Source of the DNA: Candidatus Spongiisociaceae bacterium
Lineage (GTDB): Bacteria > Actinomycetota > Acidimicrobiia > Spongiisociales > Spongiisociaceae
Reading direction: 5' to 3'
Length of the DNA: 64,000 nucleotides
Assembly: GCA_965202665.1 (NCBI GenBank)
Contig: OZ241841.1
Location: forward strand, 2,208,001-2,272,000
A program made the translations under genes and the position numbers. Of this stretch, positions 3,046 through 64,000 are shown piece after piece (within the stretch, counting starts at the first letter, position 1; the number at the start of each line of letters is the position of its first letter). The notes beneath the pieces are model-generated. The model was not told where the DNA came from and made no database searches. It was given only the letters and a program-made list of their open reading frames with translations.

Positions 3046-3115
3046 CCCGCCCCCCCCCCCCCGTGGGCGGCCAAAACCCGAAAAGAAAAACCAACCTGGG
3101 AGACAAAAACTGACC

Positions 3116-9375: not shown

Positions 9376-9464
9376 GGAGGGGTCGCATAGTCCGGTCTAG
9401 TGCGCGGCACTCGAAATGCCGTAGGGGTTTTCGCCCCTCGTGGGTTCGAATCCCACCCCCTCCG
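9376..9464 (+). tRNA. tRNA-Ser(CGA)
   Basis: Acceptor GGAGGGG/CCCCTCC-G, anticodon arm CGGCA-CT-CGA-AA-TGCCG, long variable arm. Confidence 0.95.
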
Positions 9465-9489
9465 CTTTTGTCGGTGGGTGGGTGGCGAT

Positions 9490-9517
9490 TTGACATATTG
9501 GGGGGGGGGGTTAGGGT
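9490..9517 (+). promoter_or_regulatory. Sigma70-type promoter with G11 spacer tract
   Basis: TTGACA(9490-9495)-TATT-G11(9500-9510)-T-TAGGGT(9512-9517); 16-nt spacer; upstream of the giant gene. Confidence 0.7.
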
Positions 9518-9606
9518 TTGGGGTGCTGGGCTTGTTGTGGGTTCGGCGGCCTGTTGCGGCGGCGGGTTTGGTATTGGTTCGCCGTTGGAGAGTTTGGAGG
9601 TTGGTG

Positions 9607-12600
9607 ATGGGGCGGATGTCGGGGTTGGGTTCGGCGGGTGGGGTGCGTGCGTTGGGGTTGGGTTTGGTTGTGGGTGGGGTGCGGCGTGTGTTGGGTTTGG
9701 GTTTGGCGGTGGTGTTGGTGGTGGGTTTGTTGCCGTTGGTTCCGGTGGGGGTGGTGGGGCAGGCGCAGAAGGCTACGGTGAGTATCACGTACCGGGATGG
9801 TGGTGCGGTTGTTGGTGTGAATGAGGGTGAGGAGGTGAGGTTGAAGTTGACTGTGGAGTTCGCTGGTGGGACGGCGCATAAGGGTGGTTCTATTTATGTT
9901 CAGACGGGTGGTACTGCTACTCGTCATACGGATTATGGGATGGGTAAGGATGATAATTGTTGTTCGACGGCTACTCAGTTTTTTGATAATTTTATTGATA
10001 ATGCTATTATTGATTGGAGTACTGGTTCTGGTACTGTGTCAACGAATTTTACTTTTCGGGCGGTGAATGATACGTTGTTTGAGTATTATGAGTCGTTTAA
10101 GTTGGCGGTGCAGACTTTTTCTACTGGGGGTTTTCAGTATAATGATGTGGGGTTTAGTATTCGGGATCGGGATCGTAGTTTGGGGGTGTCGTATTCTGTT
10201 AGTGAGGTGGGGGAGAGTGCGGCGGGGCAGTGGCGGTCGGGTACGGTGACATTGAGTAGGGGGGAGGTTTCGGGTGGGGTGTTTGTGCCTGCTACGGCGA
10301 ATTGGACTTCTTATGGTGTTACTCCTTTGCAGGTGAAGGTGGTGGATGGCACGGCGAAGAATGAGGTGTCGGGGGTGACGGATGAGAGGCGTGATTTTGT
10401 GTTTTCGCATTTTAATGATGCGGTGGTTGCGAATCGGCGGATTGTTAGTGTTGCTAAGGGGCAGGTGTCGGGTACGGTTGGTAATGTCGGGTTTCGGGTT
10501 TTGTCGGAGGTGGGGCCGCGGGTGGCGGAGCCGCCGGAGGTGTTTTATGTGACGGTGGATACTTCTCCGGTGTGGGGGGCGCCGGTGACGATTGTGGATG
10601 ATGATGTGACTATTGCGTTGTCGTCGTCGTCGTCGAATAGTTCTTTTGCGGGGTTCGCGGAGAGTGACATTCCGCAGCCGGTGACGGTGACGGCCCGGTT
10701 TTTGCATGCGGCTAGTTCGGTGATTCCTACGGATACGGTGGTGAATGTGAGCGTGAAGTCGTTTTCGGATAGTCCTGTGTTGACGGGTGGGGGGGCGGTG
10801 GTGTCGTCGGGGGCGTGTCCGCAGTCGAGTGGGGATGTGTGTTTGGATGTGGGGAATTCGTTTACGGTGACGATCCCGGCGGGGGAGTTGTCGGGGTCGA
10901 GGACGGTTTTGATGACGGCGCGGGATGAGGGCGGTACGGCGGAGGGGGTGGAGGGGGTGGGGTTTGATGGGTCGGCGTCGGTGGGGGGGGAGGCGGTGTT
11001 TGTGTATGGTCATGCTATCCGGCTGTATGATGCGGATGATCCGAAGGTGATTGGGTTGTCGTTGCATGAGGCGGCGACGGGGGAGGCGGGGTTGTCGTCG
11101 GTGGATGAGGGCGCGGCGAAGGCGGTGCGGGTGCGGGCTACTATGACTGGGTCGTGGCAGTCGGTGTGGGAGTCGCAGTATACGAGGGTGGTGTGGGTGA
11201 CGCCGGGTTCGGTGAGCGGTTCGGCGGTGTTGGGGTCGTGTACGGGTTCGGGTCAGAGCCGGGTGTGCACGGGGGACTTCGGACGGAACACGGGGGAGGT
11301 GACTGTCACTATGCAGCCTAAGCCGGCATCGCAGGCGACGGTGGGGGATGTGACGATCACCGCTTATGATGATACGGTGACGGAAGACGGGGAGTCGGTG
11401 GTGTTCTGGGGCCGGGCTAATTCGCAGTGGGTGGTCGCTCCGGCCATGTTGACTATTAACGATGCGGATCGGCATGTGGATTTGGGCGTGTCCCCCTCCA
11501 CGATAGCGGAGCCGGCGTCGGGTTCGGCTCGTAGTGATTTTCTGTTTACGGCGCGGTTTGGGCAGATGGTTGATAATGTGTTTGTTCCGTCGACGTCTAG
11601 TACTGTGGGCAGCGCTTTTAGTATTTCGGATTTTTCTTTTGTTAATGGGTCGGCGCGGGCTGAGGACGATAATGGGATTCCTCTGGATTTTTATCCGGTT
11701 GATACCGCTAATGTGTCTAGGGCTGTTTCCATAGTGGCGGGTTCGGTGTCGGGGACGCTGACATGGCCTTTCAATTCTTATGCTGATAATGAGGCGGAGG
11801 GGACGGAGGATTTCAGTTTCAGGGTTTGGTCGTCGACCGCGGGATACAGCGTGGGGGTGCCTAGAGTGAATATCACAGACCCGGATTCAGTGTTGAATCT
11901 GTCGATAGACGCCGATGGGGGAACAACCGGGGTGCAGCCGTTGCGGGAGGGAGAGTCGTCATCGGGGGCGATGGCGACGGCGGCGTTCCCGGCGGGTTCG
12001 TCCACGATCGGGTCGGCAACCTCGGTTGCTTTGTCTGCGGGGTTGGGGACGCCGGGGGCGGGGGTGGCGTCGGCGGCTGATTTTACTTATGCGCCGGCTT
12101 CTCCGCTTACGGTTTCGGTGGGCGCCAATAGCGTGTCGGGGTCGGCGGCGTTGGGGGGGTTGACGGTGGTGGATGATGGTGTGGTGGAGGGTCCGGAGAC
12201 GTTTGTTTTGTCGGGGGTGGTTACGGGGGCGGTGGGGGTGTCGGCGGCGGATAGTTCGGTGACGATTGTGGATGATGATGCGGATATTGATTTGACGGTG
12301 TCGGAGTCGTCGGTGCTGGAAGGAGCGGGGGAGCAAGCGATCACCGTGAAAGCCGCTTTTAGGGGGAGCAGTTCCGTTTTGGCTGCGGCGACTGATGTGG
12401 CGGTGACGTTGGCGTCGGCGGCGTCGGGTGGGGCGGTGTTGTCGTCGGCGGTGTGTCCGCAGACCAGCGGAGACGTGTGTTCCGACAAGACCAATAATCA
12501 GTTCACGGTGTCCATCCCAGCGGGCGCCACCAGCGGGTCGGCGACGTTGCGGCTGACCGCCCGGGACGACGGCAACGCGGAGGGGGGAGAGGGGCTGGTG

Positions 12601-15600
12601 TTGTCAGGGACGGCGTCGGTGGGCGGCGCGGCGGTGTCGGTTACGTCCGCGAATATTAGCGTGTTTGATCCGGGGCAGGCGATTGATTTGTCTTTGACCG
12701 ACACCGCGCAAACTCCTGTGGTGTTGACGGCGGTGGGGGAGGACGGGGGCGCGCGGGTGGTGCGGGTGACGGCTACTGCTCCGGCGGCGGTGTCGGCGGA
12801 GACGGTGGTGACGGTGAGGATGGGGCTGGGGGGTTCGGCGGTTTCGTCGTGTTCGGGTTCGGGGCAGAGCCGGGTTTGCACGGGGGATTTCGGGACGGTT
12901 GCGGATACGTCGACGATAACCATCCCGTCGGGGGGAACGACCGGGTCGGTGGACGTGACGGTCACCCCCTTTGAGGACACCATTGCGGAGGAGGATGAGA
13001 CGATTCGTGTTGGGGGTTCGGCGGGGGGGTATGCGGTGCGGGGGGCTGATTTGACGATCACCGACCAGGATCGGACGGTGGGGGTAGGCGTGGGGATGGG
13101 GGAGGCGGTGTATGGGGAGGGCGGGGATCCGCAGTCGGGCTGGGCCACCCGCAGCCAGTGTATGACTTCCGCTCCGTTTTCCAGGACGGTGACCGGCCGC
13201 CTAGGAGGGCTTTCGGCGGAGGGGGTGTTCACCGCGGCTACCTCCTCCACGCTGGGCAGTAACGTGCGGGGGCGGGTGCGGACGGTGGACGGCACCGCTA
13301 CCTACAATCAGGATTATTCGTCGGATGGGTTCGCGGTGGACACCATGCCTACCGCGTGGGAGTTTATTACCATCGCGGCTGGTTCCACGTCGGGGACGGC
13401 GACGGTGCAGTTGGTGAGTTGCGTGGATGACGTGGCGGAAGGGGATGAGACTTATCAGATGACTATTTCCAGCCTCCCGGCGGGGTTCGGGGCGCATCCG
13501 CAGGTGATGACCGTCACCGACGACGACAGCCGCCCCGGGCTGCGGGGAACCATATCCGAGGACGCGGGCGGAACAGTGGGGGTGGAGGCTTTCCTCCCGG
13601 CGGGGTCGTCGGAGTTGACCGACCCGCAGGTGGTGTCTTTAACATCGGTGACCGCCGACAGCGCGGGGACGGCTGATTTTTCTTATCCGTCGCCTGCGCC
13701 GGTGTTGTTGACCATCCCGGCTGGTTCCACTTCGGTCAGCGGCGCCATCCCGGGGTTGGCTATCACTGATGATGGGAGCGTGGAGGGGCCGGAGCGGTTG
13801 ACTTTGGGCGGGACGGACGCGTCGGGGGCTGCGGTGTCGGGTTCGTTGGCTATCGTCGATGACGACGCGGTGATAGATGTGCTGGTTTCCCCGGCGGAGG
13901 TGTTGGAGCAGGCCGCCGCTCAACAGATCGGGGTGACCGCCCGTTTCCGGGGAGAAACTTCCGCGTTGACCGCGGCGACGGCGGTGACGGTTACGTTGGC
14001 GGGGGCGCAGAACGGGGCTACGTTGGCGGCGGCGTGTCCGGCTACTTCTGAGGATGCTTGCACCGACCAGGCCAACAACCAGTTCACCATCAGCATCCCC
14101 GCCGGGAGCACCGAGGCGTCTGGGTCGTTTATGCTGACCGCCCGCAGCGACAACGCGGCGGACAACGACGAAGACCTGACCGTATCCGGCGCGGCCACCA
14201 TCGGAGGCGAAGCCGCGGTGGTGGAGGGGACGGAGCTGACCATATTCGACCCGGGCCGGTCCATCGCGTTGAGTTTCACCGACACGGCTTCCACGCCGGT
14301 TCCGTTGGTGGATGTGGGGGAGGATGGGGGGGCTAAAGTGATTCGGGTGGTGGCTTCTGCGCCGGTGGCGCCGACGTCGGCGGTGACGGTGGAGGTGGTG
14401 GTGGGAGCGGAGGGTACTACGGCCGGGGCGGGGGATTATTCGTCGAGTTCGGATAGGGTGTCGGTGACTATCGCCGCCAACGACACCAGCGGGACAGCGG
14501 ATGTGACTATCACCCCCGCGTCGGATACCATCACCGAAGACTTGGAGACTATCCGGTTCGCCGGTTCAGCCACTGGGTATGCGGTGGTGGCGAATGATTT
14601 GGTGATACAGGATCAGGATCGGGCGGTGAAGGTGATGGCGGCGGAGGGGGATCTGGTGGTGCGGGAGCCTAGGGAGGGGGAGGCGTTGACCAACCAGTAT
14701 AATGGCATTCTCAAGTTTTTCCGGGGTATGACGGCTGTTTTGGGCGGGGTGTCGGGCGGGGTGTTCACCCCCTCCACCTCTTCTACTTACAGTTCTAATT
14801 TGGGGATGCGGGTGCGGGTTGATGCGGGGACGGCCACCGTGGGCGGCCAGACTAGCACTACCGACGATATCTTCCATGAGCACGGCGAGGCGGACGACCC
14901 GCTGGAGGTGACTATAAACGCGGGGGCCCTTTCCGGTAATGTGAATATAGTGTACGCTCCCACCGCGGTTCCGGTGGTTGCTGTTTTGAAGGACACGGTG
15001 GCGGAACCGGATCAGATCTTTTACTTCCGCCCCGCCGTTCCCTCCGGTTGGACCGCGGTCAGGGAGACGATCACCATCCAAGACTCCAACCAGATAGCGA
15101 TAACCGTGGACACTGACAGCGCGACGGGAACCCAGACCACGCTGGCGGAAGGCGCTACCGGTTCCGGTGTGACCGTTTCCGCCGCTTACTACAACGCCAC
15201 CACCTCGGTAATCACCTCCGCCACCAACGTGACTCTGTCAGCCGCCGCGCCTACTCCGGCGGGTGCGGGGAAGGCCGTCGCCACTGATTTCACCTATTCT
15301 CCGGCTACGCCCAATGCGATTACTTTCCCCGCTAACAACGCCACTCCTTCAGCCACCGCCACGCTGGCCGGGTTGACGGTTACCGACGACGCGATAGTGG
15401 AGGGGCCGGAGACGATCACCGTCAGCGGTTCTTCCTCGTTAGGCGACGCCACCCCCGCTACTATTACCATCGTTGACGACGATGACGATATCACGTTGTC
15501 GGTGTTCCCCGCTTCGGTAGCGGAAGGCTCCGGAGCGCAGACCATTGCCGTCACCGCCGCTTTCGCGGGAACCACCTCCGCTTTGACTACCGCCACCGAC

Positions 15601-18600
15601 GTAACAGTCACCATCGCCTCCCCGTCCAGCAACGGCGCCACCCTGGCCGCCTGCCCCTCCTCCACCACTGATGTATGCGCTACCGGTTTGACCAGTAGCC
15701 AGCTGACGGTAACCATCCCCGCTGGGGAAACCAGTAGCACGGCTACTTTCCAGCTCACCGCCCGCGATGACACCACCGCCGACGATGATGAGAAACTGAC
15801 CGTCACCGGCTCCGCCACCGTCGGCGGCGCAACAGCGACCATCACCGGAACGGAAATGTCGGTACGCGATCCGGGGCGGGCGATCACCCTTAGTTTCACC
15901 GACACCGCCCAAACTCCCGCCGCGCTGACCGCGGTGGAAGAAGACGGCGGGGCGCAGACGGTGCGGGTGGTGGCCACCGTCGGGACGGCCCCCGCCGCGG
16001 ATACCGATGTAACGGTCACCGTAGGAGCCGCGGGCGGCACCGCCATTTTGGGAACGTTGGGGGATTACCTGCGTAGCACGGGGGAGGCGACGGTGACTAT
16101 CGCGGCGAATAATACCAGCGGAACCGCCGATGTGACTATCACTCCGGTAGTGGACAGGGTGACCGAAGATCACGAGACGATCCGCTTCGCGGGCGCCGCC
16201 ACCGGATACGCGATAGTACCAGCTGATTTGCAAATCACCGATCAAGATCGGGTTATCAAATTCACTTTGAATCCGGACACGCAAGATGAGTTGCCTTACA
16301 GACAAAATTCGATTAGTTTGTCCGCTGTCGCTGCTTTGGGAGGCACCTCCGGTGGCGTGTTCACTCCTTCCACGTCCTCTACCTACAGCGGAAGTATGAA
16401 TTTGTTGGGGTGGAGTCCTGAAGGTTATGGTCAGAATGCTCAGACTAGATCTGTTGCGACATATGTTATAGAGGACGGTGATCCCTTCTTTTTGCATTCG
16501 TATAGGAGATGGTTTTCTATTCCGTCTGGTTCTTTCGCCTCTTCGTCGCAAAGCATGGACCATAGCGTGGAGATAAACGATACGGCGGATCCGGATGAGG
16601 GGGTGAGACGGGTGGGAGCGAGACAGAATACGGTTCCGGCGGGGTTCGTTCAGGAACAAGCCTGGTTTAGGATACGGGACGTGGCGGATTCGCGGGTGGT
16701 GTTCGGGGTGGATACCGACGGTAACACTATGGGCAACCAGACTACGATTGAGGAGGGCGCTTCCGGGTCGGGGGTGGAGGTGTGGGCGGGATGGCCGCCG
16801 GGGGTTACCAATAACCGTCACGCGTCGCCGGTCACGGCCACTCTTACCATGGAGGAGGATACGGAACCGGGGGCGGGGGAGGCGGGGGACGCCGATTTTG
16901 ATTACGCTCCGCCGTCGCCGCTGTCGTTCACTATTCCCGTTAAGGTGGCGGAGGATCTTATGGCTACGCCTCCGGTGGTGGGTGTGTCTGGGTTGAGGAG
17001 TTCTTCGGGGACGTTGGCGGGTTTGTCGGTGGTTGATGATTCGATTGTGGAGGGCCCGGAGACGATAGCCTTTGGGGGGACTTCCAGTTTGGGCGCCGGG
17101 CATAGCGTTACGGGAGAGTTGACCATCGCCGACGACGACGCCGATATTACGTTGTCGGTGTTCCCGGCGGTGGTGGCGGAAGGGTCGGGGGCGCAGACGA
17201 TAACCGTCACCGCCCGCTTCGCGGGAACTACCTCGGTGTTGACAACGGCTACCAACGTGACGGTGACCATCGCGGCGGCGGCGTCGGATGGGGCGGTGGT
17301 GGACGCGGATGCGTGCCCGTCGGAGTCGGGGGATGATGTGTGTACTAATAAGGCGGGCAATCAGTTTACGGTTGCTATTCCGGCGGGTGAGTTGGAGGGC
17401 AGTGGCGTTTTCCAGTTGACCGCTCGGGAAGACTCCACCGCCGATGATGGGGAAGGGCTGATCGTTTCGGGGTCGGCCATGGTGGGGAGCGAGGCGGTGG
17501 AGGTGACGGGGGCGGCGATGACGGTTCATGATGCGGATAAGACGATCACGTTATCTTTTACCGATACCGCTCAGACCCCGACGGCGTTGACCGAGGTGGA
17601 GGAGGATGGGGGTGCGCAGACGGTGCGGGTGGTGGCTACCGCTCCGGCGGCGGTGGGCGCGTCGCCGGTGACGGTTTCGGTGACGGTGGGCGCGGCGGGC
17701 GGGGAGGCGGCGCTGAACGCTGATTACACCCGTAGTTCCGCTTCGGCGACGGTTACTATCCCCGCGCAGGGCACGAGCGGTTCGGCGGATGTGACTATAA
17801 CGCCCCGGTCGGATACGATTACCGAAAATCAGGAGACAATAGTTTTCACCGGTTCCGCTTCCGGGTACGGGGTGGTGGGGGCTGGTTTGGGAATCGCGGA
17901 TCAGGATCGGTACATTCGGATGTCCCCCACCGGCGGTGACCGGTTTAATGAGCCCCCTGTTGTGTTTGCTGGTCATTCGGTGGGCGCTAAGGCTGATTTG
18001 GGTGGTGTAACCGATGGGGTTTTCACCGCTTCGACGGCTTCCACGTACAGTGTTGCTTTGAACAATTTGCGGGTGACGATGCGGGGAGTGACCGCGACGG
18101 AGGGGATAGCCGGGTCGCCGGTAGGGCCGAGGGATTTCGTTTGGACCGGTAATGGAGGTGGTGTCGACTCGCGGTTTTTGTCTATCCCGGCTGGTTCTTT
18201 GTCTGCTACGGCGGTTCCTCATACTTTACAGTTGTTTCGTTATGCCAGGGAGGTGGAGCCGCTGGAAACGATAGAAGTGGTGGCTACTGAGCCGGCGGGT
18301 TTCACTGTCGTCCCGGGGATTATCAGCATTTTGGACACAATTCAGACTCAGCTTACCTTGCAGGTGGATACCGATCGGGTGGAGAGCGGGAATCAGAGCG
18401 TGTTAGCGGAGGGCGCTGCTGGTTCCAGTGTGGATGTGTCGGGAAGATACCGGGGTACGAGTAACAAGTTGGGGGAGGACACGGTGGTTACTTTGTCGAC
18501 GGCTGTGGAAACCCCCGGGGCGGGGAAGGCTACCGCGGCTGATTTCACTTATGCGCCGTCGTCGCCGAACTCTTTCACCATCCCGCAGGCGGCGGTCTCT

Positions 18601-21600
18601 TCGTCGGTTGCGGCGACGTTGGCTGGGTTGACGGTTGTGGATGATGCGATCGTGGAGGGTTCGGAAACGTTCCGGATTACCGCTGCTTCTTCGCAGACGT
18701 TGCGGATTACGGGTGCTTCTTCGTCGGGGGCGGTTGCGGCGGCGACGGTGACTATTTGGGATGATGATGCTGATATTGATTTGTCGGTGTCCCCGTCGGT
18801 GGTGGCGGAAGGCGTGGGGGCGCAGACGATAACGGTCACCGCCCGTTTCAAGGGTTCCAGCACTGTGTTGACGGAGGCGGTGGATGTGTTGGTGTCGGTG
18901 GCGGGCGCGTCGGGGGGCGCGGCGTTGGCGGCTGCGCCGTGTCCGCAGGCGTCGGGGGATGCTTGTACGGATAAGACGGGCAATCAGTTTACGGTTACTA
19001 TTCCGGCGGGTTCGTTGTCGGCTAACGGAACGTTCCAGTTGACCGCCCGTGATGATAACGTCGCCGAGGGGGCGGAGGCTTTGACTGTTAGCGGTTCGGC
19101 TATGGTGGGGGGTTTGGCGGTGGATGTGGAGTCGGCTGTGGTGAACGTGGTGGATCGGGGCATTGAGTTGTCGGTGAGTAGCGGTGGGTCGGCGTTGACC
19201 GGGTTGGGGGAGGACAGCGGTTCCACCACCGTGCGGGTAACCGCCACTTTGCCGGTCGCGTCGAGTACGCCGGTGGTGGTGGGGGTGAACGTGACGGGCG
19301 GGTCCGCCACTTTGGATGATGACAGTATGTTCGGGGCGGGGGAGGATTTTCGGGTTTCTTATCCGCAGGGTTCCCCGCCGGCGGGTTACGGGATGGGGAT
19401 TTCCATTCCCGCGGGGCGGGTCAGCGGTTGGGCGGATATTGTGGTGGCGGTGAACGACGACCGGGCGGCGGAGGGGGCGGCGGAGACGATATCCGTGGAT
19501 GGGGCGGTGGCGAGCGGGAGCGTGCTGGCGGTGGTGGACACCGCTTTTGATATCACCGACAACGACTCCGGTATAACTCTGAACGTAACCGCCGACGCGT
19601 TGGAAGAAGACGGCGACGGGAGAGCGGCCCGGGTGACCGCCTCTTTGGCGGGAACCACCTCCCAGATCGGGGTCGCCACCGTCGTAACGTTGTCGTTCAC
19701 GGCGGGGGCTGGTACGGAAGCGGCTGATTTCACCGCTCCCGGGGCCGGCAGTGAGATAACGGTGACCATCCCGGCTGGCTCGGTCAGCAGTTCCTCCACC
19801 GCTCTGACCGGTTTGGGTATAACCGATGACGCTATCGCCGAGGTGGGGGAAACCATCCAAGTGGGGGGAACCACCCCCGGTCTGTCGGTTACTCCCGCCT
19901 CGCTGACTATTCAAGACGACGACTCGGTGATAGTCCTAACCGCCAGCGCGGCGGCGGCGGAAGGCGGAACTGGGTCGGGGATTACCGTGTCGGCCGCTTT
20001 CCAAACCGGGACCACCTCCTCCGAAATCGCCACCGCCACCGCGGTGACGCTCACCGTGGGGGACGGGACCGCGGTCAGTCCCGCCGACTACCAAAACAGC
20101 GGAACATACACCGTGACCATACCCGCCCAAGCGACCGGCGCCGCCGCCGGAGTATCCCTGGCCGGCCTGACTGTAAAACATGATGACATAACCGAAGGGC
20201 GGGAGACGATCATTATCAGCGGAACCTCCACTTTGGGCGCCGCTGCTTCCGCGGTGTTGGCGATCGCCGACGCCGACACCGCCCTCACCCTGAGCGCTAC
20301 CCCCGATTTGCTGGTGGAAAGACCCAACCATTACATTGTGACCGTCACCGCCGCCTTCGACAACGTAGCCTCTTCCGCCCGTACTGCGGCTGTTCCGGTG
20401 ACGGTCACCCTCGCCGACGACACCGCCACCCACGGCACCAGCAACGACTGGTACACCAACCTGCCCGCCAACCGGCAGCTGACGGTGAACATCCCCGCCG
20501 GACGGACCAGCGGCGCATCCACCTTCCGCATCGTCGCCCGCGCCGACAGCACAGGGGAATCCACCGAACGGGTTTCCCTCACCGCTACCGCGCAGGTAGA
20601 CGGCTCTGCGGTGACCGCCACTTCCGCCCGGTTGGAAATCGTCGACCAAGGCGTGACTCTGGGCTGGGCCAGCAACACCGGAACCCCCCTGACCGCCATC
20701 GCGGAGGACAGCGGAACCACCACCCTGCGCATAACCGCCTCCATACCCGTGGTAGCCCCCGCCGGAGGCGCCGTCATAGGAGTGAACATCGCCAACGGCA
20801 CCGCCGCCCCCGCCGCCGCCTCCACCGGTTTCGGAACCGGGGAGGACTACCGCATCACCCTGCCCACCAGTCCCGCCCCGCCCGCCGGATACGACCTAGC
20901 CGTCGCTATCTCCGCCGGGGAAACCAGCGGCCACAGAACGGTAACGTTGCAGGTAAACGACGACAACACCGCCGAGGGGGCGTCGGAGGGGGCTGACCCG
21001 GAAACTGTCCACATCGAAGGCGGTACCCTGACGCTGGGCGGATCCACCCTGCCGGTGGTGGGGGCCAACCTGAACATCACCGACGACGACCAAGCCCCCG
21101 ATGAAATAACCATCACTCTGCAAACCCCCGGCGGGGCCGACCTCGCCCAAATATTCGAAACAACCGCCACCACTCCGGTGGTTGTAAAAGCCGCCTACCA
21201 GGGTACCAACACTCTGCCCCACTCGGTGATCGTCCCCCTGGGAGTAGCCAAAGTCGGCGACACTGCCATACCCGACACGGACTACCGGGACGTAACCTCG
21301 CCCCCTTCCATTACCATCCCCGCCTACCAATCGCATGGAATGGCCCGTTTCGATCTAGAAGCCATCGACGACGATGATCCTGAAAGCCCCGAAACGATCA
21401 CCGTACGAGGCGACCCCGCCGACACCCTGACCGCCTTCACCGTCGGTGAAGACACCCTAACCCTCGTCGACGACGAAAGCGCCGTAACCCTCTCCCTGGA
21501 TGTCACCCAAGCCCCCGAAGGAACCCGCCAAAATGTTACCGTGAAAGCCGCCTTCTCGGCCGGCGTCACCCAAACCGCTCAGAAAACCATCCGAGTAACC

Positions 21601-22974
21601 GTAACCGACGGAACCGCCACCGCCGGAGAAGACTACCAAACCCATGCCCCGTTCGATATCAGAATCCCCGCCAACAGCAACTACGCCACCACCAACATCA
21701 CCCTCAACCTCACCCCCGACGACCGCGTCTACGAAGGCAACGAAACCCTGGAACTGACCGGATCGCACTCCCAGTTCACCGTCAGACCCGTCACTTTCAC
21801 CATCACCGAAAACGACGCCCAACCCAACCGCATAACCCTATCCGCCAGCCCCAACCGAATAAACGAAGGCCAAACCGCAAACGTAACCATCACCGCCTCC
21901 CTCGGCTCAGTCGCTCTAACCCAAGACATGCAAGTTCCCATCCGTTTGGGAACCGGAGAATCTTACCAACCCGGCCCCGGCGCCCACACCATCCGCATCC
22001 CCGCTGGCCAAACCAGCGGAAACATCCAAATAAGAATACAAATAAACGACGACAACACCCGTGAGGACGCCAAACAAATTCGCATAACCCCCGGCGCCGT
22101 TGCCGGATTCACCGTCACCACCACCGCTATCACCATCCCCGCCAACGACGCCCCCGCTGTCACCACCACCCCCACCGGCGGTGGCGGAGGAGGTGGTGGC
22201 GGTGGAGGAGGAGGTGGTGGTGGCGCCCCAGCTCCGCCCCCCGCAGGAGGGGGAGGGGGCGGTGGAGGCGGTGGAGGAGGGGCCCCGCCCCCACCCGCCG
22301 GAGGAGGTGGCGCCCCGCCCCCGGCTGGTCCCGCTGGACCTGTCGCGCCGGTTGCGCCTCCGCCCGCGCCGGTGGTCTGCCAGGGACGGTTCTGCGACGA
22401 TGACGGCAGCGTCCACGAAGACAACATCGAGTTGATGGCCGTATGGGGTATAACCATCGGATGCGACGCCAACGACTCCACCAAATACTGTCCCAGTGCG
22501 CAAATCACCCGTCGGCAAATGGCCACTTTCATCTACCGGGCAGTCAATCCCCGCTGGCCCATCCAGTTCCCCACCGGCATAGAAATCAACGATGTCCCCG
22601 CCGACGCCAGCTACCGTTCCTACGCCGACTGGCTGGTAAGCATCGGGGCCTTCCAGCTGGACGACGGGAACTTCAATCCCCGGGGCATAGTAACCCGAGC
22701 CGATATGGCGGTGATGATGGTAGCCGCTTTCCCCCATATCCAGGCCGTATCCGAGTCGCAAAACCTGTTCGCGGACACCGGCAACTTGGACGCGGCGGTG
22801 GTGCGGGCTATTGAAGGCATAGCCGATAGCGGAGTGACCAGGGGATGCACCACCACGCCGCCTCTCAGGTACTGCCCCAACAATCCGGTGACCCGGGCGC
22901 AGATGGCGTCCTTCTTCGTAAGGGTAATCAACCAAGCCCCCGCCGCCGACGACGCCGCAGGCGCAAGTTCATAA
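9607..22974 (+). CDS. Giant (~4,450 aa) surface protein with Calx-beta/Ig-like repeats, Gly/Pro linker and C-terminal SLH domains
   Basis: ATG 9607 after GGAGG (the ORF-track start overlaps tRNA-Ser). Hydrophobic signal-like N-terminus, many 'DD.I.EG.ET...TI.DDD' Calx-beta-like units, poly-G/P linker ~22177-22370, SLH motifs ITRRQMATFI, VTRADMAVMM, VTRAQMASFF. Confidence 0.9.
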   Translation: MGRMSGLGSAGGVRALGLGLVVGGVRRVLGLGLAVVLVVGLLPLVPVGVVGQAQKATVSITYRDGGAVVGVNEGEEVRLKLTVEFAGGTAHKGGSIYVQTGGTATRHTDYGMGKDDNCCSTATQFFDNFIDNAIIDWSTGSGTVSTNFTFRAVNDTLFEYYESFKLAVQTFSTGGFQYNDVGFSIRDRDRSLGVSYSVSEVGESAAGQWRSGTVTLSRGEVSGGVFVPATANWTSYGVTPLQVKVVDGTAKNEVSGVTDERRDFVFSHFNDAVVANRRIVSVAKGQVSGTVGNVGFRVLSEVGPRVAEPPEVFYVTVDTSPVWGAPVTIVDDDVTIALSSSSSNSSFAGFAESDIPQPVTVTARFLHAASSVIPTDTVVNVSVKSFSDSPVLTGGGAVVSSGACPQSSGDVCLDVGNSFTVTIPAGELSGSRTVLMTARDEGGTAEGVEGVGFDGSASVGGEAVFVYGHAIRLYDADDPKVIGLSLHEAATGEAGLSSVDEGAAKAVRVRATMTGSWQSVWESQYTRVVWVTPGSVSGSAVLGSCTGSGQSRVCTGDFGRNTGEVTVTMQPKPASQATVGDVTITAYDDTVTEDGESVVFWGRANSQWVVAPAMLTINDADRHVDLGVSPSTIAEPASGSARSDFLFTARFGQMVDNVFVPSTSSTVGSAFSISDFSFVNGSARAEDDNGIPLDFYPVDTANVSRAVSIVAGSVSGTLTWPFNSYADNEAEGTEDFSFRVWSSTAGYSVGVPRVNITDPDSVLNLSIDADGGTTGVQPLREGESSSGAMATAAFPAGSSTIGSATSVALSAGLGTPGAGVASAADFTYAPASPLTVSVGANSVSGSAALGGLTVVDDGVVEGPETFVLSGVVTGAVGVSAADSSVTIVDDDADIDLTVSESSVLEGAGEQAITVKAAFRGSSSVLAAATDVAVTLASAASGGAVLSSAVCPQTSGDVCSDKTNNQFTVSIPAGATSGSATLRLTARDDGNAEGGEGLVLSGTASVGGAAVSVTSANISVFDPGQAIDLSLTDTAQTPVVLTAVGEDGGARVVRVTATAPAAVSAETVVTVRMGLGGSAVSSCSGSGQSRVCTGDFGTVADTSTITIPSGGTTGSVDVTVTPFEDTIAEEDETIRVGGSAGGYAVRGADLTITDQDRTVGVGVGMGEAVYGEGGDPQSGWATRSQCMTSAPFSRTVTGRLGGLSAEGVFTAATSSTLGSNVRGRVRTVDGTATYNQDYSSDGFAVDTMPTAWEFITIAAGSTSGTATVQLVSCVDDVAEGDETYQMTISSLPAGFGAHPQVMTVTDDDSRPGLRGTISEDAGGTVGVEAFLPAGSSELTDPQVVSLTSVTADSAGTADFSYPSPAPVLLTIPAGSTSVSGAIPGLAITDDGSVEGPERLTLGGTDASGAAVSGSLAIVDDDAVIDVLVSPAEVLEQAAAQQIGVTARFRGETSALTAATAVTVTLAGAQNGATLAAACPATSEDACTDQANNQFTISIPAGSTEASGSFMLTARSDNAADNDEDLTVSGAATIGGEAAVVEGTELTIFDPGRSIALSFTDTASTPVPLVDVGEDGGAKVIRVVASAPVAPTSAVTVEVVVGAEGTTAGAGDYSSSSDRVSVTIAANDTSGTADVTITPASDTITEDLETIRFAGSATGYAVVANDLVIQDQDRAVKVMAAEGDLVVREPREGEALTNQYNGILKFFRGMTAVLGGVSGGVFTPSTSSTYSSNLGMRVRVDAGTATVGGQTSTTDDIFHEHGEADDPLEVTINAGALSGNVNIVYAPTAVPVVAVLKDTVAEPDQIFYFRPAVPSGWTAVRETITIQDSNQIAITVDTDSATGTQTTLAEGATGSGVTVSAAYYNATTSVITSATNVTLSAAAPTPAGAGKAVATDFTYSPATPNAITFPANNATPSATATLAGLTVTDDAIVEGPETITVSGSSSLGDATPATITIVDDDDDITLSVFPASVAEGSGAQTIAVTAAFAGTTSALTTATDVTVTIASPSSNGATLAACPSSTTDVCATGLTSSQLTVTIPAGETSSTATFQLTARDDTTADDDEKLTVTGSATVGGATATITGTEMSVRDPGRAITLSFTDTAQTPAALTAVEEDGGAQTVRVVATVGTAPAADTDVTVTVGAAGGTAILGTLGDYLRSTGEATVTIAANNTSGTADVTITPVVDRVTEDHETIRFAGAATGYAIVPADLQITDQDRVIKFTLNPDTQDELPYRQNSISLSAVAALGGTSGGVFTPSTSSTYSGSMNLLGWSPEGYGQNAQTRSVATYVIEDGDPFFLHSYRRWFSIPSGSFASSSQSMDHSVEINDTADPDEGVRRVGARQNTVPAGFVQEQAWFRIRDVADSRVVFGVDTDGNTMGNQTTIEEGASGSGVEVWAGWPPGVTNNRHASPVTATLTMEEDTEPGAGEAGDADFDYAPPSPLSFTIPVKVAEDLMATPPVVGVSGLRSSSGTLAGLSVVDDSIVEGPETIAFGGTSSLGAGHSVTGELTIADDDADITLSVFPAVVAEGSGAQTITVTARFAGTTSVLTTATNVTVTIAAAASDGAVVDADACPSESGDDVCTNKAGNQFTVAIPAGELEGSGVFQLTAREDSTADDGEGLIVSGSAMVGSEAVEVTGAAMTVHDADKTITLSFTDTAQTPTALTEVEEDGGAQTVRVVATAPAAVGASPVTVSVTVGAAGGEAALNADYTRSSASATVTIPAQGTSGSADVTITPRSDTITENQETIVFTGSASGYGVVGAGLGIADQDRYIRMSPTGGDRFNEPPVVFAGHSVGAKADLGGVTDGVFTASTASTYSVALNNLRVTMRGVTATEGIAGSPVGPRDFVWTGNGGGVDSRFLSIPAGSLSATAVPHTLQLFRYAREVEPLETIEVVATEPAGFTVVPGIISILDTIQTQLTLQVDTDRVESGNQSVLAEGAAGSSVDVSGRYRGTSNKLGEDTVVTLSTAVETPGAGKATAADFTYAPSSPNSFTIPQAAVSSSVAATLAGLTVVDDAIVEGSETFRITAASSQTLRITGASSSGAVAAATVTIWDDDADIDLSVSPSVVAEGVGAQTITVTARFKGSSTVLTEAVDVLVSVAGASGGAALAAAPCPQASGDACTDKTGNQFTVTIPAGSLSANGTFQLTARDDNVAEGAEALTVSGSAMVGGLAVDVESAVVNVVDRGIELSVSSGGSALTGLGEDSGSTTVRVTATLPVASSTPVVVGVNVTGGSATLDDDSMFGAGEDFRVSYPQGSPPAGYGMGISIPAGRVSGWADIVVAVNDDRAAEGAAETISVDGAVASGSVLAVVDTAFDITDNDSGITLNVTADALEEDGDGRAARVTASLAGTTSQIGVATVVTLSFTAGAGTEAADFTAPGAGSEITVTIPAGSVSSSSTALTGLGITDDAIAEVGETIQVGGTTPGLSVTPASLTIQDDDSVIVLTASAAAAEGGTGSGITVSAAFQTGTTSSEIATATAVTLTVGDGTAVSPADYQNSGTYTVTIPAQATGAAAGVSLAGLTVKHDDITEGRETIIISGTSTLGAAASAVLAIADADTALTLSATPDLLVERPNHYIVTVTAAFDNVASSARTAAVPVTVTLADDTATHGTSNDWYTNLPANRQLTVNIPAGRTSGASTFRIVARADSTGESTERVSLTATAQVDGSAVTATSARLEIVDQGVTLGWASNTGTPLTAIAEDSGTTTLRITASIPVVAPAGGAVIGVNIANGTAAPAAASTGFGTGEDYRITLPTSPAPPAGYDLAVAISAGETSGHRTVTLQVNDDNTAEGASEGADPETVHIEGGTLTLGGSTLPVVGANLNITDDDQAPDEITITLQTPGGADLAQIFETTATTPVVVKAAYQGTNTLPHSVIVPLGVAKVGDTAIPDTDYRDVTSPPSITIPAYQSHGMARFDLEAIDDDDPESPETITVRGDPADTLTAFTVGEDTLTLVDDESAVTLSLDVTQAPEGTRQNVTVKAAFSAGVTQTAQKTIRVTVTDGTATAGEDYQTHAPFDIRIPANSNYATTNITLNLTPDDRVYEGNETLELTGSHSQFTVRPVTFTITENDAQPNRITLSASPNRINEGQTANVTITASLGSVALTQDMQVPIRLGTGESYQPGPGAHTIRIPAGQTSGNIQIRIQINDDNTREDAKQIRITPGAVAGFTVTTTAITIPANDAPAVTTTPTGGGGGGGGGGGGGGGGAPAPPPAGGGGGGGGGGGGAPPPPAGGGGAPPPAGPAGPVAPVAPPPAPVVCQGRFCDDDGSVHEDNIELMAVWGITIGCDANDSTKYCPSAQITRRQMATFIYRAVNPRWPIQFPTGIEINDVPADASYRSYADWLVSIGAFQLDDGNFNPRGIVTRADMAVMMVAAFPHIQAVSESQNLFADTGNLDAAVVRAIEGIADSGVTRGCTTTPPLRYCPNNPVTRAQMASFFVRVINQAPAADDAAGASS

Positions 22975-23043: not shown

Positions 23044-23358
23044 TCAAAGAGCCAATAATGCTCTTATCGCGTCGACGCCGCGAGTCACGTTACCGTTCAG
23101 ATAGTCGCGATGGCTTTCAATCAGGGCTTCCATCTCTTCAGGATCCCCCAGTATGGAAAGGGTTTCTTCCAGCGACTCCAGGGTTTCCCGCCCCTGGGGA
23201 GACAGTCCCCCATCGACGCTTCGCGCCCGCAGAGCCGCAAGCCGGCTTTCCAGAGATTCCATTTCCCGCTGGGCGGTCAGCAGGCCGTCGTTCCGTTGCA
23301 CCCGATCAAGAAACTCCACGACCTGCTGGTCGACGGTGAGCGTTGGTTGGTTGGTCAT
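23044..23358 (-). CDS. Small protein with Phd/YefM-antitoxin-like C-terminus
   Basis: ATG 23358 after GGAGGAG; ESLEETLSILGDPEEMEALIES resembles the YefM/Phd toxin-binding helix; paralog at 31756-32043. Confidence 0.65.
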   Translation of the reverse strand: MTNQPTLTVDQQVVEFLDRVQRNDGLLTAQREMESLESRLAALRARSVDGGLSPQGRETLESLEETLSILGDPEEMEALIESHRDYLNGNVTRGVDAIRALLAL

Positions 23359-23444
23359 GTCGCTCCTCCAATATATCCGCGTCTGCCCGCCTCGCCGGGG
23401 TTGGCGGGTATAGGATAATGGTAGGTCTTCGTCAGGAGGGACGG

Positions 23445-26400
23445 ATGATTGACAGTTTCGCCGGGCTGACCGGTCGGAGGGTTTCGGTGGACGGCGCCGG
23501 CGCCCCGGCCGAGGCCCGGGATTTGCAGGCGGTGATGTTGGACGCATCCTTTGAGGTGTTGCTGGCCGGGTGGGATTCGGCCCGTCCTCCCGCTCCGGGC
23601 AAACTGCTGTCCCTCCACCGGTGGCGGCTCGGCTCACAGAACTTTTCGCTGGTGGTTGCGGTTACCGACCGACAGGGCAAGGTGTGGCTGGCCGGTCCGG
23701 GCGGGAGAGACCAGCCGGTGGGTCCGCTCACCGAATCGGAGGCCGCCCGCATGTTGCAGGCCGCTCTGGAGGAACCGTCCGGCCCGTCCGCCCATAGACG
23801 GATAGCCGACCTGCTGAAAGCCCGTCGCAAGGACGATTCCGTTCCCGGCCTGGGCGGCGAAGGCCTGTTCGCCCAGCACTACCTGGCCAAAGTGCTACCC
23901 GGTCAGGGCGTTTGGCGGGAATCCGTCGCCCGGGCCCGCCCCTGGCTGTGCCTGCGCGGCATGGCCCTGATAGAAGCGATGGGGTTTTCCGCCCTTCGCC
24001 CCGTTGGGAACGGGTGCGTCCTGACAGATAGGATATCTCAAGGGAACGGGGGGGGGGGTAGGCTTGGTGAGAGCCCTAATGCGGTGGCGGTGTTGCTTGA
24101 CCGCGTCGAGCATTTCGATGCGGGCAGCACGCGTTTCGACGCTTCCCCGGTAGAATACGGCCTGTCCCTGGCCCGCGAGGAGCAGGCGGGTTGGCTGATT
24201 CTCCTGCGCGGTTCGCAAATCCGGCTTTATTCGGCCAAACCGGGCGTGGGAGTGGGCAGCAGGGGGCTGACCGAAACCTTTTTTGAGCTGGACCTGGCCC
24301 TGCTGGAAGAAGACAAGGCGGGCTACCTTGATTTAGCGTTTTCCGCCGCCGCCCTAGTCGAAGACGGAACGGTAAAACAGTTGCTGGAGGGCTCACGCGA
24401 CTACGCGGTGGGTTTGGGGGATCGCCTGCGGGAGCGCATCTACGTGGAGGCCATCCCCGAATTGGCGGTAGCGGTGGCTAAAGAACTGGAACGGCTGGAC
24501 CACCAGGCTGGCAAAGATCTGGCCCGCGCCTACCGAATCACCCTCCGCATCCTGTTCCGGTTGCTGTTCCAAGCCTACGCGGAAGACTGCGGGTTGTTGC
24601 CTTACGGAACCAACGAAGAGTACACCAAATATTCGCTGAAACAACACGCCCGCGACCTGGCGGATCCTCCCGAAGAAATGTTTGATCCCCGCTCCCATAA
24701 AACTTGGGACGAACTTATGTTGGTGTGGGGAGTCATCGACACCGGTGACGCCGTCATGGGGGTTCCCGCTTACAACGGTGGTCTGTTCCTTTCCGACCCG
24801 GAGCGTTCCCCCGATGGCGCCCTCATTTCTCAAATGCGGTTGGATAATGCGGTGGTGGGCCATGCCCTGCGCCGACTGCTGGTGGATGTGGACAGCCTTG
24901 GCGTTCCCGGACCGGTGGATTTTCGGTCGCTGTCCATTCGGGAGTTCGGGACCATCTACGAAGGCCTGCTGGCTTCGTCCCTGTCCCGGGCCGACCAAGA
25001 CCTGACTTTGGACAAAAAACAGACCTACGTCCCAGCCAAGGCGGCGGACAAAGTGGAAGTGCGGGCAGGTGAGATTTATTTCCACAACACCTCCGGCATG
25101 CGCAAATCAGCAGGTGTTTATTTCACCCCCCGGTTTGCAGTAGACCACCTGTTGGAACGGTCGCTGGTCCCGGTGCTCAGGGATCATCTCAAAAAAATCA
25201 ACGCAATGTTGGATGAAGACGATGATGCGGGCGCCTACGAGTCGTTTTTCGATTTCCGAGTGTGCGACCCGGCAATGGGGTCGGGCAACTTCCTAGTGGC
25301 GGCCATTGATCATATGGCCGAGGAGATGACCCCGTTTTTGCGTGCCCACCCTATACCGGGTGTGACCGGTGAGTTGAACCGATTGGAGGCGGCGGCAAGG
25401 AAAGAGTTGGGCGATGCGGCCGATCAGTATTCGTTGGATCGGTCAATGTTGCTCCGCCGCCAGATAGCCCGCCACTGCATCTACGGCATCGACAACAACG
25501 ATATCGCAGTGGAGTTGGCAAAAGTCGCCGTGTGGTTGCACACGTTTGTCCCCGGTTTGCCAATGTCCACCTTGGACCACAATCTGGTGTGCGCTGATTC
25601 GCTGACCGGAATAGAGTCCATTGAAGAGGCTATAGAAATACTGGACCCGCAACGCAATCCGGGGGTGGTGTCGCTGATGCGCGGGCCCCTCGAGGAAAGC
25701 CTGGAGGAGTCCCGAAGTCATCTCCAAGATGCGGCCAAAATTTCGGAATCCACCACGGCCGAAATCAGGCAAGCGGACAAGCACCGGGACAGGGCCGTTC
25801 AAGTCGCCGGTAAAGCCAAGGCCATCTTTGACGCGGCGGTGGCCGCCCGCATCGGCGAGTTGGGCGATTTGACGATGGTAGAGCCGGAAGAGATTGTCCG
25901 TATGTCCCAGCAAACAGAGGTTCAAGACCGGATAGCTATTCTCAATCCTGGTCATATGCCTTACCTGTTTCCGCAAGTTTTCCTCCGAGACCCCTCAGGG
26001 TTTGATGTAATGGTTGGCAATCCTCCCTGGGAAAAAATTAAAGTCGAGGAACATGCCTGGTGGGGTTTACGCTTTCCAGGTTTACGGGGATTACCTTTGG
26101 TGGCAAAGCGAGAGAGGCTTAAAACCCTAAAACACGACCGCCCTGATCTGGTGGATGAATATGAACAGGCTGTTACCCTGACCGCAGAGTTGCGGAAGAT
26201 TATAAGCAAGGGACCTTATCCTGGAATGGGTACTGGTGATCCTGACCTCTTCAAAGCCTTCTCATGGCGGTTTTGGAAGTTATCTCGCGATGGCGGTGCT
26301 GTAGGTATTGTTTTGCCCTCTGGTGTATTAAAAGGTAAGGGTTCGGAAAGATGGCGTAAGCAGGTTTTCGAGGAGTGTTGTTTTGTTGATTTAGCTCCTT

Positions 26401-26906
26401 TGATAAACACAGGGGGCTGGGTTTTTAATGATGTGCATAAGCAGTATATAGTAGGTTTGATGGCTATAGGAAAGGGTAGCGAACAATTTGGTTCCGTACG
26501 TATCAGAAATCTTTGCCGAAGTGTGAGCGATTTAGCACGAGTTGATGCTAGTAATGTGGTGCAAATAGATGAGCTTTTGGCTTGGACACCTGAAGCTCTT
26601 TTCCCTTTATTTCCTAGCACGGATGCTATTAAGGTTTTTAGAAAAATGATTAAGTACCCCAGAATAAAAAGAAGCGAGCGTCAGCGAGCGTCAGCGAGCG
26701 TCAGCGAGCGTCAGCGAGCGTCAGCGAGCGTCAGCGAGCGTCAGGTACAGCCTCTACAAGCTACCACAAATTGGAGGACAAGTCCAGTAACCGAATTACA
26801 CACAAGAAAAGACAGAAAGTATTTCTTAGGAGCAGAACTTCTTGGCGAGCATTACCCATTAGAGAACTCGAAACCACGCCCGACAGACATAGGTTCACAG
26901 CAATGA
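23445..26906 (+). CDS. Eco57I-like (type IIG family) N6-adenine DNA methyltransferase
   Basis: ATG 23445 after AGGAGG; EFGTIYEGLL, RKSAGVYFTP, VCDPAMGSGNFL, IYGIDNN, DVMVGNPPW. Confidence 0.93.
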   Translation: MIDSFAGLTGRRVSVDGAGAPAEARDLQAVMLDASFEVLLAGWDSARPPAPGKLLSLHRWRLGSQNFSLVVAVTDRQGKVWLAGPGGRDQPVGPLTESEAARMLQAALEEPSGPSAHRRIADLLKARRKDDSVPGLGGEGLFAQHYLAKVLPGQGVWRESVARARPWLCLRGMALIEAMGFSALRPVGNGCVLTDRISQGNGGGGRLGESPNAVAVLLDRVEHFDAGSTRFDASPVEYGLSLAREEQAGWLILLRGSQIRLYSAKPGVGVGSRGLTETFFELDLALLEEDKAGYLDLAFSAAALVEDGTVKQLLEGSRDYAVGLGDRLRERIYVEAIPELAVAVAKELERLDHQAGKDLARAYRITLRILFRLLFQAYAEDCGLLPYGTNEEYTKYSLKQHARDLADPPEEMFDPRSHKTWDELMLVWGVIDTGDAVMGVPAYNGGLFLSDPERSPDGALISQMRLDNAVVGHALRRLLVDVDSLGVPGPVDFRSLSIREFGTIYEGLLASSLSRADQDLTLDKKQTYVPAKAADKVEVRAGEIYFHNTSGMRKSAGVYFTPRFAVDHLLERSLVPVLRDHLKKINAMLDEDDDAGAYESFFDFRVCDPAMGSGNFLVAAIDHMAEEMTPFLRAHPIPGVTGELNRLEAAARKELGDAADQYSLDRSMLLRRQIARHCIYGIDNNDIAVELAKVAVWLHTFVPGLPMSTLDHNLVCADSLTGIESIEEAIEILDPQRNPGVVSLMRGPLEESLEESRSHLQDAAKISESTTAEIRQADKHRDRAVQVAGKAKAIFDAAVAARIGELGDLTMVEPEEIVRMSQQTEVQDRIAILNPGHMPYLFPQVFLRDPSGFDVMVGNPPWEKIKVEEHAWWGLRFPGLRGLPLVAKRERLKTLKHDRPDLVDEYEQAVTLTAELRKIISKGPYPGMGTGDPDLFKAFSWRFWKLSRDGGAVGIVLPSGVLKGKGSERWRKQVFEECCFVDLAPLINTGGWVFNDVHKQYIVGLMAIGKGSEQFGSVRIRNLCRSVSDLARVDASNVVQIDELLAWTPEALFPLFPSTDAIKVFRKMIKYPRIKRSERQRASASVSERQRASASVSERQVQPLQATTNWRTSPVTELHTRKDRKYFLGAELLGEHYPLENSKPRPTDIGSQQ
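24048..24058 (+). repeat. G11 homopolymer inside the MTase CDS (currently in frame)
   Basis: aac-GGGGGGGGGGG-tagg, encoding NGGGGR. Confidence 0.9.
26673..26742 (+). repeat. Tandem repeat (AGCGAGCGTC)x7 inside the MTase CDS
   Basis: Seven exact 10-bp copies; encodes SERQRASASV repeats. Confidence 0.97.
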
Positions 26907-62984: not shown

Positions 62985-63012
62985 TTGACAAATTGGGGGG
63001 GGGGGTTAGCGT
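62985..63012 (+). promoter_or_regulatory. Sigma70-type promoter with G11 spacer tract
   Basis: TTGACA-AATT-G11(62995-63005)-T-TAGCGT; same layout as 9490-9517. Confidence 0.72.
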
Positions 63013-63099: not shown

Positions 63100-64000
63100 A
63101 TGTCGGTTCGCGTGTCGGGGAAGGTTTGGCTTGTAGGATTGTTGGTGTTGGGTTTGACGGCGGGTTTGTTGGGTGCGGCTCCGCCGGGTGCGGTGGGGAC
63201 GCATGGGGATGATGCGGATGTGGATTATGAGCCATCGTATTCAGCCTGCGTGGGGGCGGCGACGGAGTCTTTCGGGTTTGAGGACACGGAAGGATCCTTC
63301 GCGGAGGAGGCCATAAATTGTTTGGCGCATTATGGGATCACGACGGGACGGTCGGCGACCATGTTTGCTCCCAATGATTCGGTGTTGCGGTGGCAGATGG
63401 CCCTGTTTTTGGCGAGGGCGGCCGCGGCGGCGGGGATCATGTTGGCGAACCCGGCCGCTGATCAGGGGTTTACGGATGTTGGGGCGGTGTCGGGGGAGGC
63501 CCGTAACGCCATCAACGGTTTGGCGGCGGCGGGAATAATGCCCGGTGTGTCGCAGACCACTTTCTCGCCGAATGCGTCGGTGACGCGCGGTTCCATGGCC
63601 ATGTTGCTGGACGCGTTTTTGGCGGCGGCGACGCCGGGGGCGGGGGCGTTTGGGGGGGAAATTGAGAAGTATTCGGATATAGAAGTGGATAATTACAATG
63701 TTTTCAACGATATCGATGGGGTGTCGTTGAATATTTATAATGCGATTTATCGGATTTATGAGGTGGGGGTGACGCAGGGGGTGGGTGATCATCAGTTCGG
63801 TCCGGGTCGTAACGTGACAAGGGCGCAGATGGCGGCCTTCATCACTCGGGCGTTTGCGCATACGGTGGCTCGTCCGGCGGGGGTGTCGATTCAGGCGGAG
63901 AAGGATTCGGTACTAGGCGAGTCGTCGGTGCAACTTATCGTGTCGGTGCGGGATGCGATGTTTCAGCCGGTGGTGGATGCGTCGGTGGATGTGTTCCGTT
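63100..64000 (+). CDS. Secreted protein with three N-terminal SLH domains (possible S-layer protein), 3'-partial
   Basis: AAGGAGG RBS; hand translation MSVRVSGKVWLVGLLVL..., AINCLAHYGITTG, VLRWQMALFL, VTRGSMAMLL, VTRAQMAAFI; open to the window end. Confidence 0.9.
   Translation, partial: MSVRVSGKVWLVGLLVLGLTAGLLGAAPPGAVGTHGDDADVDYEPSYSACVGAATESFGFEDTEGSFAEEAINCLAHYGITTGRSATMFAPNDSVLRWQMALFLARAAAAAGIMLANPAADQGFTDVGAVSGEARNAINGLAAAGIMPGVSQTTFSPNASVTRGSMAMLLDAFLAAATPGAGAFGGEIEKYSDIEVDNYNVFNDIDGVSLNIYNAIYRIYEVGVTQGVGDHQFGPGRNVTRAQMAAFITRAFAHTVARPAGVSIQAEKDSVLGESSVQLIVSVRDAMFQPVVDASVDVFR

Follow-up and report, generated by a model that had tools for sequence, protein, structure and literature searches.

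The genome of a sponge-dwelling actinobacterium carries 24 copies of a promoter-like element in which a run of 11-13 G residues separates the -35 and -10 hexamers, and 23 of these copies precede genes for large SLH-containing surface proteins. By analogy with porA and vlp, we consider it likely that the element mediates slipped-strand transcriptional phase variation over the whole surface-protein repertoire, most of which would be expressed at a low level by default. The anatomy of the element, its enrichment before SLH genes, its bias in spacing and its variation in length between populations were all observed, in a stretch of DNA of 64,000 nucleotides (referred to as the window), in the genome to which the window belongs (G000; a single contig of 2.77 Mb, 64% GC, 94% complete) and in the contigs of other sequencing runs.

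Two copies, 53.5 kb apart, are present in the window (Table 1). Behind TTGACA, the bases TATT (copy 1) or AATT (copy 2) lead into the G11 run, and a single T separates the run from the predicted -10 hexamer, giving a spacer of 16 nt at both sites. A GGAGG motif (9596-9600) precedes the start codon of the first gene (ATG at 9607), which lies 90 nt past the predicted -10; the corresponding distance for copy 2 (ATG at 63100) is 88 nt. These data confirm the preliminary description of this DNA with respect to the letters of both sites, their 16-nt spacers, the distance of about 53 kb between them and the approximately 90 nt to the starts of the SLH-protein genes. The same description regarded the two genes as unrelated, which is correct outside the SLH anchor but not within it, as the SLH region is the only part in which the two proteins are alike (29% over 206 aa, E 2e-7). 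An alignment of the two promoter regions extended over only approximately 45 bp, beginning at the -35 hexamer.

Table 1. Features of the two promoter-like sites in the window and of the adjacent genes (positions refer to the window).
Feature	Position	Strand	Remarks
Perfect -35 hexamer TTGACA, copy 1	9490..9495	+	sequence
G11 run in 16-bp spacer, copy 1	9500..9510	+	other runs' contigs: G12-T or G13 (both 17 bp)
Predicted -10 hexamer TAGGGT, copy 1	9512..9517	+	TANNNT type, 3/6 to TATAAT
~4455-aa surface protein	9607..22974	+	Calx-beta repeats, C-terminal SLH, N-terminal leader judged hydrophobic by eye
Perfect -35 hexamer TTGACA, copy 2	62985..62990	+	sequence
G11 run in 16-bp spacer, copy 2	62995..63005	+	reference sequence
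Predicted -10 hexamer TAGCGT, copy 2	63007..63012	+	form found in 20/24 copies
5' part of 1246-aa protein with three N-terminal SLH	63100..64000	+	continues beyond the window end; length taken from the genome
tRNA-Ser(CGA)	9376..9465	+	closely upstream of copy 1, same strand

The gene located behind copy 1 has two paralogues of approximately 84% identity, which have the same promoter. Its 5' end is strongly G+T-rich, while the protein becomes richer in Thr, Ala and Pro near the 3' end (judged by eye). G+T-rich 5' ends were also noted in other members of this gene family.

A generic scan detected no terminator-like sites upstream of either window copy, and a gene on the same strand lies upstream of 21 of the 24 genomic copies (33 bp away in the case of the copy at 62985), as placed by a crude, self-trained gene caller which clipped the GT-rich 5' ends of large genes and was used for the coding mask and rough neighbours alone. 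Read-through from such genes could therefore blur a switch; it is possible that transcription of the tRNA-Ser(CGA) gene enters the region of copy 1.

The preliminary description had predicted that the element would recur, and the 24 copies, retrieved from the genome with the pattern TTGACA-N4/5-G11-13-TA(G/A)NNT, bear this out. Nine TTGACA sites with just G5-6 were excluded from this number (33 sites in the full listing), and the reversed pattern had no matches in the genome. Among the 75 G/C runs of at least 11 residues, 24 sit 4-5 bases after TTGACA and ahead of TANNNT, compared with a chance expectation of 0.04 genome-wide (0.12 if all runs were non-coding), the 24 copies being mostly paralogue copies and hence not independent.

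The 23 SLH genes located behind the element are of three architectures; three encode proteins of approximately 4500 aa, eleven proteins of 1840-2400 aa and nine proteins of 1175-1400 aa. The expected enrichment before SLH genes was also found, since 23 of the 35 SLH frames of at least 1150 aa, but none of the 28 shorter ones, carry the element (the cut-off was picked after the data had been seen, and SLH paralogues are not independent). In total, the genome contains at least 63 SLH frames (150 of 172 candidates were scored). The 24th copy (G000:846205) lies ahead of a short frame and a methylase-like gene, in a region of restriction-modification type. As the element precedes a restriction-modification-type gene in a second genome as well (see below), the proposal of a module for surface proteins, well founded for the 23 SLH genes, needs to be widened: the module does not serve surface proteins alone.

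Within a gene family, similarity spans both the leader and the gene, whereas between families it is limited to a core of 30-45 bp around the hexamers. This pattern indicates that most copies come from gene duplication, yet the core is also found on non-homologous genes. The cassette has thus probably spread mostly by gene duplication inside families and, in a few instances, been copied to non-homologous genes, whose probable representatives are the ~1250-aa N-terminal-SLH family, the Calx-beta families and the restriction-modification gene.

Long runs of the complementary base were also noted near SLH frames. Upstream of the three largest of these (10406, 8083 and 12734 aa; G000:C1:1172655(-), 1652180(+) and 2390131(+)), the coding strand contains C12-13 runs, the first site being of the form TTGCAA-18-TAGAAT; these runs possibly represent a second, poly-C class of promoter switch. 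In addition, an SLH paralogue whose frame (1192 aa) lacks a start has C15 and C14 runs at its 5' end (G000:C1:1783935-1783967).

The spacer of the 24 G-run copies measures 15 bp in eight cases, 16 bp in eleven and 17 bp in five (19 of 24 at 15-16 bp). At 233 non-coding TTGACA sites without a G run, the ordinary TTGACA..TANNNT spacing was 15 bp once, 16 bp six times, 19 bp nine times and, most often, 17 bp or 18 bp (21 cases each; 1-7 for other distances), which suggests, on the basis of motif counts, that the spacing optimum of this genome is 17-18 bp. The assembled majority state of the G-run copies is therefore mostly 1-2 bp short, and extra G residues would bring them to the optimum. This agrees with the earlier expectation that G12 would give a favourable 17-bp spacer at the window sites. 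Changes of one or two bases are sufficient to shift the copies (15-17 bp) across the motif-count optimum. As a spacing of 16 bp was found in six ordinary promoters, it may mean reduced activity rather than the off state.

In actinobacteria, TANNNT is the minimum -10 sequence. The -10 hexamer of the element is TAGCGT in 20 copies and TAGGGT in three, both of which match TATAAT at three of six positions. Neither form occurs among the 58 -10 candidates of the other TTGACA promoters of the genome, and neither window site was called by a generic promoter scan, the -10 falling under its 4-of-6 rule. A hexamer of the TANNNT type is in place, as had been described, but it is weaker than was implied.

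Variation in tract length was analysed in assembled contigs of eight sequencing runs, whose technology is unrecorded and whose contigs drop rare alleles. Of the words sampled from a stretch of the window, 69-76% were present in runs labelled as sponge metagenome, three of which were used for the length comparison. The left flank of the 9490 locus is unique and served to recognise it. Run X9 has G12-T here, with one G added (record 19, depth 275), in a contig of about half single-copy depth, and X12 (record 1) and X13 (record 7) have G13 placed directly on TAGGGT. The reference form, G11-T, was found in X13 as well (record 8), at a depth of 5.4 beside 12.5; the two X13 alleles, more than one slip apart, probably represent two strains. 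In X11 an additional G, at a depth of 9.8, could be assigned to this locus by depth arithmetic. In X1 and X5, paralogues are mixed in the rows at 9499, which were left out; an ambiguous record (X12 record 2) was dropped, and the pieces listed from X2 and X3 did not include this locus. Every non-reference allele at the 9490 locus gives 17 bp.

Similar differences were observed at other sites. The paralogue copy at G000:780222 has G11 in the genome, X2 and X3, G12 in X13 and G13 in X11 (assigned by matching depth), while the copy at G000:2454366 has G12 in the genome and G11 in X13. A control run located outside promoters, C13 at window positions 3050-3062, just after tRNA-His, was 13, 12 and 11 residues long in X1, X5 and X11, respectively. 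The G11-T, G12-T and G13 alleles reveal that the 9490 tract differs between populations; it is not the invariant tract that the preliminary description had set against a switch. The contig alleles represent a between-population difference, not a switching rate, and all of the observed length variation occurs between runs that also differ by SNPs.

Since the run length differs between populations, the element is likely to switch genes up or down at random. We propose that it is a promoter, most likely recognised by the housekeeping sigma factor, in which replication slippage would add or remove G residues and in this way alter how far apart the -35 and -10 hexamers lie. The change in spacing would tune sigma-factor recognition, so that each downstream gene would probably go up or down independently of the others. 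Copies with 15-16 bp spacers would be weak or off, and one or two extra G residues would switch them on. Most copies would be low, a minority have 17 bp, and each cell would display only a few of its large surface proteins at a time, in changing combinations. That the promoter is active, that run length matters and that it switches at some rate is presumed here from porA, tp0126 and vlp. Three hallmarks of phase variation come together in the element: G11-13 between a -35 and a (weak) -10 hexamer, length polymorphism in contigs, and SLH or restriction-modification genes as targets.

The strict pattern was found in five of the 29 genomes of the family, with 24 copies in the window's genome, 45 in the congeneric G004, five in G003, three in G002 and one stray match in G018. 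The 45 sites of G004 have spacers of 15 bp (19 sites), 16 bp (15 sites), 17 bp (two), 18 bp (three), at least 19 bp (four) and 12 bp (one), with none in one case, i.e. 34 are at 15-16 bp. One of these copies precedes an N6_Mtase protein, whose start resembles (by eye) the frame at G000:846205, and another precedes a 448-aa SLH protein of a further family. Long runs are numerous (44-81) in the five genomes of genera g1 and g2. Eight further family members assembled into one or two contigs have 3-21 of them and lack the element. In 20 chosen stretches of G001-G003, G runs were found before similar genes behind variant -35 forms.

Several arrangements in these relatives are worth mentioning. In G001 and G002 (L190-L195, L200-L202), N-terminal-SLH genes are preceded by TTGC-G11/12-about 10 nt-TATAAT/TACAAT/TATAGT, a layout in which the run begins inside the -35. 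In G002 and G003 (L200, L202-L208), a second run of G11-15 follows the promoter run at a distance of approximately 105-210 nt, within or close to signal-peptide coding sequence, and may form a double switch, transcriptional plus frameshift.

Across the Acidimicrobiia, the class to which the family belongs, four of 401 genomes, many of which may be fragmented assemblies, matched; more than one site was found solely in the window's genome and in G268 (three sites). A scan of GTDB genomes yielded at least 119 matching stretches; ten genomes, chosen for having such a match, contained 20, 12, 5, 4, 4, 3, 2, 2, 2 and 1 sites. The richest of them, the Dehalococcoidia genome G029, has 20 sites with G15-17, and the spacer is 19-22 bp in 13 of the 15 sites with TANNNT; fibronectin-III repeat proteins are encoded downstream in six of the seven cases scanned. 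This indicates that the layout arose more than once and that in G029 it errs on the long side. Among the matches listed, single TTGACA-polyG-TANNNT sites occur in many phyla (L031-L149), often ahead of proteins with signal-peptide-like starts (by eye). The one match obtained from JGI metagenomes (L249), located after an integrase-like frame and with AT-richer, non-matching flanks, was treated as unrelated.

The lengths of G/C runs in the window's genome are bimodal: there are 96 runs of 8, one of 9, none of 10 and 75 of at least 11 residues (24 of 11, 28 of 12, 14 of 13 and nine longer), where a geometric fit expects about 24, 6 and 2 runs of 9, 10 and at least 11, respectively. Candidate causes of the scarcity of runs of 9-10, as opposed to the common runs of 11-13, include directional slippage bias, selection and consensus calling. 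The MutS_V and MutL_C profiles had no matches in this genome (94% complete), while NucS_C had one. According to the accessible part of a study of Mycobacterium smegmatis, NucS does not repair indels, and the overall indel rate of that bacterium is low despite the absence of MutS/L (PMC7015689).

An alternative is that the promoter is real but that its G run serves as a slow tuning knob or attracts mutations neutrally; runs would lengthen to 11-13 once they had 9 G and would drift between strains, with modest strain-level differences in expression in place of fast, reversible and selected switching. Runs of 11-13 dominate, and those of 9-10 are missing, in every context, including the varying intergenic C13 after tRNA-His, and the co-occurrence of length differences with SNPs points in the same direction. 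Moreover, three of the four directly read 9490 alleles give 17 bp, which could mean selection for one working length. Nevertheless, drift leaves unexplained why 24 of the 75 long runs lie in one promoter spacer before one gene class, why many others lie in methylase frames, and why the same layout, with G15-17, precedes fibronectin-III paralogues in the Dehalococcoidia genome; we therefore judge this explanation unlikely.

Less probable still is that the cassette mainly binds a protein or has a structural role, for example as an operator, as an activator-dependent promoter, or as a G-quadruplex or R-loop that triggers recombination among paralogues, with spacing of secondary importance. Conservation does extend past the hexamers, to GATT(G/T)A(C/T) upstream and TTTT downstream, the -10 is module-specific, the G residues are always on the non-template strand, identity among paralogues is patchy, and eleven is, by our reasoning, the shortest run able to form a two-tier quadruplex. 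Against this, the spacer total of the 24 copies is held at 15-17 bp while the flanks trade bases (N4 or N5, T present or absent), and other lineages place the run between different -35 and -10 forms. In Neisseria, the quadruplex motif of the pilE type is a conserved chain of four G3 tracts that lies upstream of the variable gene; here, additional chained G3 tracts accompany only three of the 24 copies, and a conserved motif of this type was rejected.

It is very improbable that errors of sequencing or assembly produced the runs or their lengths. Homopolymer lengths are error-prone on all platforms, annotated G-tract lengths were found to differ from error-corrected counts in another study (PMC9187656), and it is odd that runs of 9-10 are lacking. 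Against this, the G run occurs in contigs that come from several sequencing runs of different studies, the eight family genomes of one or two contigs mentioned above have few long runs and lack the element, and an artefact would not single out one promoter position. An artefact was therefore rejected for the presence of the run, while exact lengths may be off by one.

Twenty frames behind non-promoter runs were picked by eye from 38 run-and-strand rows with long flanking frames; 14 of them match restriction-modification families, some in frame and some shifted. The families with long G/C runs include type I, type III-like, type ISP and Eco57I-type frames. Surface proteins and restriction-modification genes form the usual phase-variable repertoire, as stated in the accessible part of PMC11868660. 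In the window, a G11 run (24048-24058, + strand) lies in frame within an Eco57I-type restriction-modification gene (23343-26906) and is a candidate translational switch, and an N6_N4 methylase frame (54236-56047, - strand) contains, close to its 5' end, a C11 run (55994-56004, - strand) that is a candidate frameshift switch. Elsewhere in the genome, a tandem cluster of type ISP restriction-modification genes (G000:C1:1215879-1232124) contains eleven runs of G11-13; of two similar copies in it, one has its tract in frame and the other has it shifted.

Slipped-strand switching, the reading that we prefer, is a mechanism already known; what is new is its scale, the shared cassette and the host setting. 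We found no report of poly-G promoters in sponge symbionts in the literature searched, which was mostly open-access, and the main text of PMC12008989 contains no occurrence of the terms phase variation, S-layer, SLH or homopolymer. The trick is best known from pathogens, and is met here in a bacterium that dwells in sponges. Sponges have no adaptive immunity, and a long-run promoter cassette in such a host suggests that selection comes from phages, sponge phagocytes or adhesion. In genomes of this kind, the presence of a gene need not mean its expression.

A broader idea can be put forward only tentatively, and we would rather doubt than accept it at present: host-associated marine bacteria of several phyla may have independently evolved default-off arrays, in which a slippery cassette stands before tens of giant surface paralogues and its resting run misses the optimum, being too short at G11-12 in this genus and too long at G15-17 in G029. 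Multi-locus phase variation would then be common in sponge symbionts, as a defence against phages or host cells, and would not be a speciality of pathogens, and any one cell would show just a few of the proteins, a random choice among millions of combinations.

Several known systems resemble the one described here; the comparisons are based on the accessible parts of the cited papers. The other long G/C runs of the genome, which lie in restriction-modification frames, resemble those of phase-variable restriction-modification genes (phasevarions). However, phasevarions are translational switches, whereas the cassette is predicted to act on transcription, with one copy also standing before a restriction-modification-type gene.

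The vlp genes of Mycoplasma hyorhinis, a family of about seven members, have a poly-A tract. Indels in the spacer turn vlp on or off (PMC2268961). As in the present system, the surface-protein genes are paralogues; as proposed for it, each gene has a separate spacer under slippage control and expression is combinatorial. The two systems differ in that vlp combines poly-A with small lipoproteins in a single family of a pathogen, while here poly-G precedes SLH-anchored proteins of 1200-4500 aa, from at least three families, as well as a restriction-modification gene, in a sponge-associated actinobacterium.

Bifidobacterium breve UCC2003 is likewise an actinobacterial commensal with G-tract slippage acting on surface structures, its pilus G-tracts shifting between G11 and G12 according to error-corrected sequencing (PMC9187656). 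Its tracts are intragenic frameshift switches at two loci, in contrast to a promoter cassette shared by tens of loci; the same paper mentions promoter-spacer G-tracts in passing. Degenerative slippage is dealt with in PMC4948707.

The closest parallels are porA of Neisseria meningitidis and tp0126 of Treponema pallidum, in which poly-G also lies between the -35 and -10 of a surface-protein gene (PMC7864442, PMC3899988) and a single-base change also moves the spacing around 17 bp, the distance that both promoters require (PMC7864442). These are single loci of pathogens, with measured effects, whereas the present element, known from sequence alone, exists in 24 copies (45 in the congener). Unlike porA and tp0126, the cassette serves several non-homologous families and mostly stands short of the optimum.
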